DNA from: Escherichia coli
GTDB lineage: Bacteria > Pseudomonadota > Gammaproteobacteria > Enterobacterales > Enterobacteriaceae
Length of the DNA stretch: 64,000 bases
Direction: 5' to 3' (one strand)
Assembly: GCF_003019035.1 (NCBI RefSeq)
Contig: NZ_CP027447.1
Shown in pieces: positions 28,850 through 30,968 of the stretch. The notes under the pieces were generated by a model. It saw only the letters and a program-made list of their open reading frames with translations, was not told where the DNA came from and did not search any database. A program made the translations under genes and the position numbers. How positions within the stretch are numbered: position 1 is the first letter of the stretch; every line of letters begins with the position of its first letter.

Positions 28850-29491
28850 ATGCATCGCATAGACACGAAAACCGCGCAGAAGGATAAGTTCGGCGCGGGT
28901 AAGAACGGTTTTACCCGTGGTAACCCCCAGACCGGCACGCCTGCCACCGATCTGGATGATGACTACTTTGATATGTTGCAGGAAGAACTCTGCAGCGTGG
29001 TGGAGGCATCCGGTGCCAGCCTGGAGAAGGGGCGGCATGACCAGCTGCTTACCGCGCTTCGTGCGCTGCTGTTAAGCCGCAAGAATCCGTTTGGCGATAT
29101 CAAATCGGATGGCACGGTGAAAACGGCTCTCGAAAACCTTGGTTTGGGAGAAGCGGCTAAAAGGAATGTAGGGACAGGGGCGAATCAGATACCTGATATG
29201 GGTAGCTTCACGCTTTCTGTTTCAGGTACTGGATATCAAAAATTACCATCAGGTTTTATTCTTCAGTGGGGCTCAATCGGCGCACCAGGCATTGCACAGG
29301 ATGTAGTAACCCATTTCCCGATTGCATTTCCAAACAGATGTCTGCGTGTTTTGGTCTCACAAGACTACACACCAGATAGCGGGGCTGTTGGTTATATTGC
29401 CTGTGCAGGTTTTAGTCCCGACCCGGTTAAATTTATATCCAGAGCCAGTACTCCTGGCCTCGGCGCTTCATTTTTAGCGTTAGGCTGTTAA
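28850..29491 (+). CDS. Tail fibre protein (constant N-terminal part plus variable C-terminal part in current orientation)
   Basis: 213 aa; typical fibre N-terminus ([17 protein letters not shown]); invertase crossover site lies inside the gene at ~29134-29153. Confidence 0.75.
29134..29153. repeat. Invertase crossover site, left (gix/pix-like)
   Basis: AAACCTTGGTTTGGGAGAAG; matches the reverse complement of 30949..30968 at 19 of 20 positions. Confidence 0.7.
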
Positions 29492-29512
29492 TTTAGCTAT
29501 ATGGAGTGAAAA

Positions 29513-29953
29513 ATGAATTACATATATTCCGCGACTACAAACTCTTTCTATCCGCTGGAGATGAAAGAGGATTACACTCAAGCTGACTCATGGCCAGATG
29601 ATGCTGTTGAAGTTGATGAGCAAGTGTATATTGCGTTTTCCGGATTACCGCCGAAAGGAAAAATCCGTATCGCTGGAGAAAATGGTTTTCCTGCATGGTC
29701 TGAAATTCCACCGCCAACACATGAGGAACAGATTGCTGCAGCCGAACAGGAAAAGCAGCAACTGATTAATCAGGCCAACGATTATATGAACAGTAAACAA
29801 TGGCCTGGTAAAGCGGCTATTGGTCGTCTGAAAGGTGAGGAACTGGCGCAATATAATTTGTGGCTGGATTATCTGGACGCACTGGAACTGGTCGATACTT
29901 CCGGTGCGCCAGATATTGAATGGCCTACGCCTCCGGCAGTTCAGGCCAGATGA
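29513..29953 (+). CDS. Tail fibre assembly protein (Tfa)
   Basis: 146 aa; C-terminal ELVDTSGAPDIEWPTPP resembles the conserved Tfa C-terminus. Confidence 0.75.
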   Translation: MNYIYSATTNSFYPLEMKEDYTQADSWPDDAVEVDEQVYIAFSGLPPKGKIRIAGENGFPAWSEIPPPTHEEQIAAAEQEKQQLINQANDYMNSKQWPGKAAIGRLKGEELAQYNLWLDYLDALELVDTSGAPDIEWPTPPAVQAR

Positions 29954-30514
29954 CATCCGGCGCGGTGCTGGTATCTGTTGCCGTCACCGCGTCAATGTAA
30001 TCCAGCACGGCGTTTAGTCGGGTGGTTTCTGTTTGCGTCAGCTTCCGTCCGGCCTGCAATTTCAGTTGAATAAGACTAATGGACGCCATTGCAGCATTAA
30101 TCAGCGACTGGCGCTGTGTTTCTGCCGCTTCTACTGCAGCACCGTGCTGTGCCTCAGTATCTGTCACCCATTTTTCCCATCCATTTATCGTATGGCGTTA
30201 ACGGTGAAAGCGTGACATAACCGTCTTTGATGGCACCGATATAATCCACTGTAACGGCAGCGCCATTTTCGGTTGAGTAAACAGTCTCATGGCGATGGTC
30301 TTCTTCATGGTGCCATCCTTCCCGTAAATACTGCCACTTTCCCCGAAATGTTTTCGCCCGGGTCAATATAAGTGGAACAAGCGGGCATACTTACACCAGT
30401 ATTAATATATTCATCAGACCAACCCGTATATTCATACGTTACTGTATCATAATAAAAACAACGCATATCACCCGGTACTGTAGCCAGCCCATTTTCATCA
30501 AAAACAGGTTTCAT
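29925..30514 (-). pseudogene. Alternative tail fibre assembly gene (tfa') in the invertible segment, disrupted by two frameshifts
   Basis: Three overlapping minus-strand frames (30514..30305, 30366..30154, 30167..29925) carry the N-terminal (FDENG), middle (EDHRHETVY...YDKWMG) and C-terminal (TDTSTAPDVIWPELP) parts of a Tfa-like protein. Confidence 0.55.
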
Positions 30515-30722
30515 TATTTAGCCCTCACCAGAAAGTTAAATGCGATGTTACGTGGCCTGACGGCAATAAAATTCACACCATCACCCACTGAATTACTGGT
30601 GTAATGGTATCGAGAGAAACCCGGCTCGTGTGCTGATATTCCATCGTGATTAGCAATCGAATGGCCGGAGCCCTCTGGATAATTACCTCCAAATTGCGAT
30701 AAAGATGTTGCTGCCTGCCAGC

Positions 30723-30958
30723 TTAATAATGCTCGCCACTATCCACCCCGCACCCATCATCCCAGATACGAATGAAATCACCCCGTGCGTCAGGTAATAC
30801 CAGCGACGGAAACACTTTCGCCAGCACAGGGTAATCAGTGGCAGAAAATTTCGCTCCGTTGAACTTCAAAAACACCATACCGGACCAGCTGTTGATTACG
30901 GTATTTGGCATTGCAGCGGAGGGCCAGAAGAACGGAACTCCAATAGCCGGAGCACCTT
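30723..30958 (-). CDS. Alternative tail-fibre variable C-terminal segment (Sv'), possibly truncated
   Basis: Minus-strand frame whose N-terminus crosses the right crossover site with the same LGLGE junction residues as the plus-strand fibre gene; ends ~200 nt before tfa'. Confidence 0.45.
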
Positions 30959-30968
30959 CTCCCAAACC
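30949..30968. repeat. Invertase crossover site, right (inverted copy)
   Basis: CTTCTCCCAAACCAACGTTT, inverted repeat of the left site; ~70 bp upstream of pin. Confidence 0.7.

Follow-up and report, generated by a model that had tools for sequence, protein, structure and literature searches.

Fibre switches of the Pin and Gin type have stood in textbooks since the 1980s, and a further example carries little weight as a discovery. The C segment of P1 and P7, inverted by Cin, and the Min system of plasmid p15B belong to the same Fis-dependent family of tail-fibre-switching invertases; P1 has long inverted repeats, and p15B carries six sites and undergoes multiple inversions. For Hin and Gin, serine attack at the central dinucleotide of each site and subunit rotation are established. 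The P segment of e14 and its invertase PinE, from Escherichia coli K-12, were reportedly described by Plasterk and van de Putte in 1985. Inversion of e14 in K-12 has been detected by sequencing and PCR (PMC4272514, PMC4300727), and a study from 2025 reported P-segment inversion for 33% of 562 genomes, gave the e14 inversion points as TTGGTTTGGGAGAAGG / CCTTCTCCCAAACCAA and reported that other Pin paralogues of K-12 flip the P segment in trans (PMC12529663). Such inversions are routinely seen in E. coli resequencing.

The window, which is the whole 64-kb stretch of E. coli DNA that was analysed, very probably contains a Pin/P-segment inversion switch of this Gin/Cin/Hin/Pin family, located in an apparently complete relative of e14 with a Mu-like contractile tail. 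The inversion reading is supported because the sites, the invertase, the gene order and the occurrence of both orientations in nature all agree. A Pin-controlled invertible tail-fibre segment had been proposed in the first-pass annotation, and this proposal is borne out by the recombinase, its sites, the split fibre gene, the paired chaperones and the flipped relatives. The features of the locus are the following:

28850..29491, plus strand: expressed tail-fibre gene, 213 aa (ORF; Pfam PF21882, 1.6e-14)
29127..29152, no strand: left crossover site (pixL-like), CTCTCGAAAACC TT GGTTTGGGAGAA
29139..30970, no strand: invertible segment, 1832 bp from central dinucleotide to central dinucleotide
29513..29953, plus strand: tfa, tail-fibre assembly chaperone, 146 aa (Pfam Caudo_TAP, 2e-38)
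29925..30514, minus strand: tfa', alternative chaperone gene in three frames (ORF fragments of 69, 70 and 80 aa)
30514..30968, minus strand: fibre' variable part, alternative tip (weak tail-collar match below the Pfam cut-off)
30957..30982, no strand: right crossover site (pixR-like), TTCTCCCAAACC AA CGTTTATGAAAA
31037..31591, plus strand: pin, serine DNA invertase, 184 aa (Pfam Resolvase 8.9e-52, HTH_7 5e-13)
31058..31121, no strand: putative Fis-bound recombinational enhancer in the 5' end of pin (Mu gin homology only)

The left arm of the repeat, the 20-mer AAACCTTGGTTTGGGAGAAG, is present at 29134-29153 inside the fibre gene, as originally described. An inverted copy matching at 19 of 20 positions also exists, although the location first given for it, 30949-30968, is 7 nt too far left and reads GGAGCACCTTCTCCCAAACC; its true place is 30956-30975. 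The proposed distance of ~70 bp upstream of pin agrees with the 62 bp measured from the repeat, or 67 bp from the site centre, to the pin ATG at 31037. An inverted-repeat search extended the arms to 25 nt with 88% complementarity (29134-29158 and 30951-30975), making them the longest inverted repeat in 27000-33000. These arms are the cores of two 26-bp imperfect-dyad sites, whose half-sites show dyad symmetry at 9 of 12 positions in the left site and 8 of 12 in the right. The central dinucleotides, TT at 29139-29140 and AA at 30969-30970, are one dinucleotide in inverted orientation, and the inner half-sites of the two sites are identical, such that the locus has paired inverted 26-bp sites with matching centres. 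A degenerate 26-bp site model allowing up to 3 mismatches returned these 2 matches in the 64 kb and no third site. Applied to Mu, the same model picks out the gix sites, with centres that coincide with the annotated boundaries of the G segment; this supports placing the exchange at the central dinucleotide. The window's 26-bp sites also contain the repeats TTGGTTTGGGAGAAGG / CCTTCTCCCAAACCAA named for e14.

Measured from centre to centre, the segment of 1832 bp corresponds well to the ~1.8 kb originally estimated. The left site splits the fibre gene between codons 97 and 98, with the constant N-terminal part at 28850-29138 and the variable C-terminal part, which contains a Gp53-like_C domain, within the segment. 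An identical 213-aa fibre protein occurs in 205 blocks of a public collection, and tfa is paired with this fibre in every case among the relatives listed; the 146-aa Tfa is the cognate chaperone of the expressed fibre tip. The two Caudo_TAP genes are arranged tail to tail, with the match in tfa' falling in its C-terminal fragment, and the fibre' tip has no functional start of its own. As it stands, the constant part reads ...ENL followed by GLGEAAKRN, while the minus-strand fibre ORF reads NVGLGE at its junction. Following in silico inversion of 29139-30970, ...ENL continues in frame into GLGEGAPAIGVPFF, and the LGLGE junction said to be shared by both fibre frames is thereby confirmed. The sequences of the flipped junctions built in this way are GAAAACCTTGGTTTGGGAGAAGGTGCTCCGGCTATTGG (left) and CCTTTTAGCCGCTTCTCCCAAACCAACGTTTATGAAAATG (right). 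The arrangement is that of a split fibre gene with a fixed N-terminus outside the segment, in-frame alternative C-termini inside it and a chaperone gene for each. The first-pass annotation correctly assigned the fibre tip and tfa to one strand, but its alternative versions on the other strand hold only in broad terms, since both carry frameshifts in the window. Inversion swaps coding sequence, and no promoter is moved. Searches of NCBIfam gave no equivalog above cut-off for Pin, the fibre, Tfa or YmfQ, and an Rfam scan of the window returned only IS009 at 36562-36763, with nothing in or near the segment.

The product of pin has the composition of a small serine recombinase, consisting of an N-terminal catalytic domain with Ser9, within MLIGYVRVSTNDQ, and a C-terminal helix-turn-helix. 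It aligns end to end with the Gin structures 3UJ3 and 4M6F (E = 1e-93), and is 95% identical to K-12 PinE and 78% identical to Mu Gin. Relative to PinE, the protein is full length and carries 9 differences, most of them conservative. The candidate enhancer consists of two G-N13-C 15-mers at 31058-31072 and 31107-31121, in which 14 and 13 of 15 bases respectively are identical to the collinear 5' end of Mu gin. By count, the two candidate Fis cores lie 49 bp apart, as against 48 bp in Hin. The first 15-mer is centred ~95 bp from the site centre, in agreement with the ~100 bp from one site given for the Hin enhancer, which lies inside the recombinase gene (PMC3798978). These matches point to a putative Fis enhancer in the 5' end of pin. 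Residues encoded by the candidate bases are invariant, and over the putative enhancer pin and gin showed no rise in synonymous conservation (12/24 versus 52/111 elsewhere, p = 0.82); given that this comparison provided no signal, the element is described as putative throughout. A simple promoter scan found no promoter upstream of pin, and in a scan for promoters and terminators the match count was no higher than in shuffled sequence.

To place the segment among natural genomes, the flipped form was built in silico and searched against complete E. coli genomes. Of these, 71 contained the 593-nt flipped left junction in one piece, at up to 94.8% identity, and 176 the 400-nt flipped right junction at up to 100%, with identity over all 400 nt in a natural genome. 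When the whole 2751-nt region was used as query and genomes were counted at a coverage of at least 80%, 21 genomes carried the segment as in the window and 21 carried it flipped. Both orientations therefore exist among relatives with identical sites. In NZ_CP087564, which has the same prophage type with the segment flipped, the homology with the window passes from one strand to the other inside the 20-bp repeat. Closely related isolates occur in both groups: the sister strains BH100 and BH100N agree at every position over 6536 bp apart from an 1816-bp stretch delimited by these sites, which is exactly inverted. In this pair the final base of the inner half-site is either G or A and is carried along with the segment, and the outer half-sites stay in place. 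Because this polymorphism travels with the segment, the exchange can be confined to TTGGTTTGGGAGA, which includes the central TT. We infer from the sequence that the segment would also invert in the strain itself.

The silent cassette differs from that of its relatives in a manner that affects both of its genes. Compared with the nearest relative, NZ_AP027886 (99.7% identical), the region contains three substitutions and five 1-nt deletions, at about 30179, 30181, 30319, 30321 and 30736. All five deletions fall in the silent cassette (tfa' and fibre'), and all are contractions of short C runs. The four at 30179, 30181, 30319 and 30321 split tfa' into three frames, whereas the nearest relative has an intact version of 197 aa; the fifth, at 30736, truncates fibre'. 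As a result, the in silico flipped fibre fusion is 178 aa in the window as against 248 aa in the nearest relative. The two alternative cassettes thus do not both encode functional proteins. Should the segment flip, this lineage would be predicted to make a truncated fibre with no cognate chaperone. Given that both the tip and the chaperone are frameshifted, the switch would therefore toggle between a functional and a defective fibre set and not between two host ranges.

By analogy with Hin and Gin, inversion would begin with the binding of Pin dimers to the 26-bp sites at 29127-29152 and 30957-30982. The Pin-bound sites and the Fis-bound enhancer (first ~90 bp of pin) would then assemble into an invertasome on supercoiled DNA, where Ser9 would cleave both strands at the central TT/AA dinucleotides. 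Rotation of half of the tetramer by 180 degrees and rejoining of the ends would leave 29139-30970 flipped. As the sequence shows, the first 97 fibre codons stay put and remain expressed from the upstream late operon, and a flip exchanges the receptor-binding tip together with its cognate chaperone gene. The present orientation yields the 213-aa fibre with its gp53-like tip and the 146-aa Tfa, and the flipped orientation would yield an in-frame fusion to a different tip, the one with the weak tail-collar match.

Several other readings of the locus have to be weighed against a Pin-driven switch. The probability is negligible that the inverted repeat arose by chance or simply forms a stem, with no connection to recombination. 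The short length of the repeat is the one point in its favour, whereas neither the 20-mer nor the 26-bp consensus was matched in 100 dinucleotide-preserving shuffles of the window, as against the 2 matches observed; the sites are identical across unrelated prophages, and the strand switches of relatives map exactly onto the repeat. A chance repeat was rejected on the result of the shuffles. The switch could alternatively be an inert relic, in which the sites and gene are conserved by descent and no inversion takes place in the strain now, for example if pin is not expressed. A single orientation is on record for the lineage, since the six of the 13 contigs that were aligned to the window all cross both junctions in the present one and a search for the 178-aa chimeric fibre of the flipped form found it nowhere on record. 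The promoter scan upstream of pin points the same way, and the decay of the silent cassette suggests rare use. However, pin is full length, with its catalytic motif and mostly conservative differences from the active K-12 PinE, both sites are identical to the functional e14 sites, and the Pin paralogues of K-12 act on the P segment in trans (PMC12529663), such that a relic appears improbable.

Equally unlikely is the reading that both fibre/chaperone sets are functional and the host-range switch works in full, as in Mu G(+)/G(-), in which case the five deletions would be sequencing artefacts. Assembly error was at first favoured because of the indel-heavy spectrum: within 560 bp (30179-30736) there are five deletions and two substitutions, and C-run contractions in this ratio resemble technical error more than natural decay. 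In addition, the cassette is intact, with none of the deletions, among the matches listed of the 458 related genomes covering at least 80% of the cassette query, as judged from these matches all spanning 706 nt relative to the 701-nt query, with none above 99.2% identity. Against this, 13 contigs built from public sequencing data encode the 69-aa truncated product exactly. Six of them, Logan contigs assembled independently from six runs that fall in two accession ranges, agree with the window at 100% identity over 28444-31389, ungapped and with all five deletions included. No such errors occur elsewhere, as 24 kb of the window's chromosome is 100.0% identical to strain SCU-301, 11.5 kb of the prophage is without internal indels, the 35 kb on its flanks shows essentially no errors and the remaining genes of the prophage are intact. 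Assembly error was rejected, and the deletions are taken as real because independent contigs reproduce them and the remainder of the window is clean. Selection in the lysogen might instead act mainly on an anti-phage function and not on host range, with the flip producing a short StfE2-like chimera. In silico inversion does form a 130-aa ORF, MMPFARYFCIFINVGLGE joined to AAKRNVG...LGC, which starts to the right of the segment at an ATG at 31010 on the minus strand and ends with the gp53-like tip. An equivalent ORF is annotated in flipped relatives, known defence genes lie directly downstream of pin, and StfE2 of K-12 e14 is reported to block T2 adsorption (PMC12529663). Nevertheless, the gp53-like tip is only about 25-30% identical to the K-12 tip, the link drawn between StfE2 and receptor blocking is based for the most part on docking models (PMC12529663), and fibre switching fully explains the Mu-like design, which makes an anti-phage role hardly probable as the main function. 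A further proposal, tentative and still rather unlikely, is that the lineage's switch has decayed to a one-sided ON/OFF device in which the five-deletion cluster reflects something beyond ordinary neutral decay. The cluster may reflect selection to disable the alternative fibre state, or it may be the product of a local mutational process on an unexpressed cassette; the flipped state may also be kept for an StfE2-like anti-phage chimera and not for phage host range.

The Pin-driven switch sits within a prophage whose head and tail genes are full length. Upstream of the fibre gene, Mu-type baseplate genes were identified from the ORFs and the annotation of relatives (gp44/P-like, gp45, gp46, J/gp47 and YmfQ/gp48). 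The prophage ends near 35361 with an att-like 63-nt repeat at 35299-35361, a sequence that adjoins an integrase gene in a relative, and in strain SCU-301 the site is empty and lies next to tRNA-Thr and yagU. The stretch from pin to this end carries genes for a PD-T4-3 GIY-YIG protein and a type I-C retron RT-Toprim protein. In relatives, the slot downstream of pin holds mcrA, Avs2, a HEPN protein, or DinI and an integrase. The variable defence genes downstream of pin may aid defence-system mining. For annotation, the minus-strand genes near pin are to be read as the silent half of the switch and not, as labelled by PGAP, as 'integrase' or free-standing genes, and assemblies of such strains can legitimately differ in segment orientation. 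The lineage itself offers a natural case of a switch with one dead state.

Among the closest known systems is the e14 P segment of K-12, in which the genes are likewise ordered stf, tfa, tfa', stf', pin. Each of its 26-bp sites agrees with the window's at 26/26 positions, and the window's recombinase is also of the e14 type. The same jayE/gp47, ymfQ/gp48 and constant fibre part are present at 96% nucleotide identity, and fibre residues 1-100 are ~99% identical to K-12 StfP, diverging right after the left site. At the nucleotide level, similarity to K-12 extends across the baseplate genes and the constant fibre part, stops at 29161, and resumes at 30955 through pin; between these points the match is confined to the chaperone genes, in their C-terminal halves. 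The segment, at 1832 bp, compares with 1797 or 1829 bp for e14 as counted in papers, but the variable cassettes of e14 are other alleles, without nucleotide similarity to those of the window and with fibre tips about 25-39% identical at the protein level, and the silent cassette is frameshifted in the window, unlike that of e14. The prophage does not have the make-up of e14 itself, which is cryptic, ~15 kb long and inserted in icd, with mcrA downstream of pinE. It is structurally complete in appearance, apparently lies at the thrW/yagU region, as judged from the empty site of a relative, and carries PD-T4-3 and a retron as cargo in place of mcrA. The window prophage is a relative of e14, not e14.

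The G segment of Mu, inverted by Gin, has the same gene order, gp47, gp48, Sc and Sv, U, U', S'v, gin. The 12-2-12 layout of the sites is common to both systems, and gin and pin are collinear at their 5' ends, including the region that carries the Mu sis enhancer. The Mu segment differs in its length of 3 kb, its 504-aa fibre and its site sequences (central TC/GA), and both of its cassettes are functional, unlike those of the window. Relative to p15B, with its six sites, the window has two sites only in its 64 kb. The H segment of Salmonella, inverted by Hin, has 26-bp sites and a recombinase of the same family, with an enhancer in the hin gene (PMC3798978) where pin has a putative one, and the helix-turn-helix region of Pin matches Hin structures; Hin, however, flips a promoter to switch flagellin, whereas the switch in the window exchanges coding sequence. 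The system is already known, and the window holds an ordinary copy of the e14/Mu-type switch in which the decayed silent cassette is the only unusual point.

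The mutation spectrum of the silent cassette, the frameshifted fibre and chaperone genes on the minus strand of the invertible segment, is odd. Short C runs are contracted by 1 nt at five positions (window 30179, 30181, 30319, 30321 and 30736), in the silent cassette only, and a 560-bp stretch of it holds these five contractions against only two substitutions. All five recur in independent read-set assemblies. The RefSeq (PGAP) label on the silent fibre tip is 'integrase', and even the complete flipped fibre bears it (L001, 7669-8130; L004, 4001-4747, both loci from other genomes); for this cassette the label is a recurrent misannotation. 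Within a P2-like prophage, a further locus (L003, NZ_CP070071.1 128047-136446) contains an invertible fibre/chaperone segment at 1640-4821 with an invertase gene at both ends. No constant fibre part adjoins this segment, which looks like a variant produced by rearrangement or deletion.

To the right of the invertible segment, the following features were located in the window.

31599-31626 and 32619-32646: 28-nt direct repeat flanking the PD-T4-3 gene, copies 89% identical
31649-32473, minus strand: PD-T4-3 (LEM-3-like GIY-YIG) anti-phage gene, immediately downstream of pin and before the prophage end
33134-34969, plus strand: Ec67-family retron RT-Toprim gene (type I-C), between pin and the prophage end
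35299-35361: 63-nt repeat of sequence adjoining the integrase gene of a relative
36562-36763, plus strand: IS009 (Rfam RF02111), 191.7 bits, just beyond the prophage

The 63-nt repeat is probably the mark of attR. An empty site is provided by strain SCU-301, which is 100.0% identical to the window across 36000-60000 and lacks the prophage, with only an integrase fragment present there beside tRNA-Thr and yagU (L010, NZ_CP051751.1 3872000-3884000).

The first copy of the 28-nt direct repeat begins 8 nt past the pin stop codon, and the repeat may mark the insertion of a PD-T4-3 gene cassette. The non-coding RNA of the retron is expected within 32474-33133. The slot between pin and the prophage end looks like a variable hotspot for defence cargo, with the same position in relatives being occupied by mcrA (K-12), Avs2, a HEPN protein, or DinI together with an integrase.
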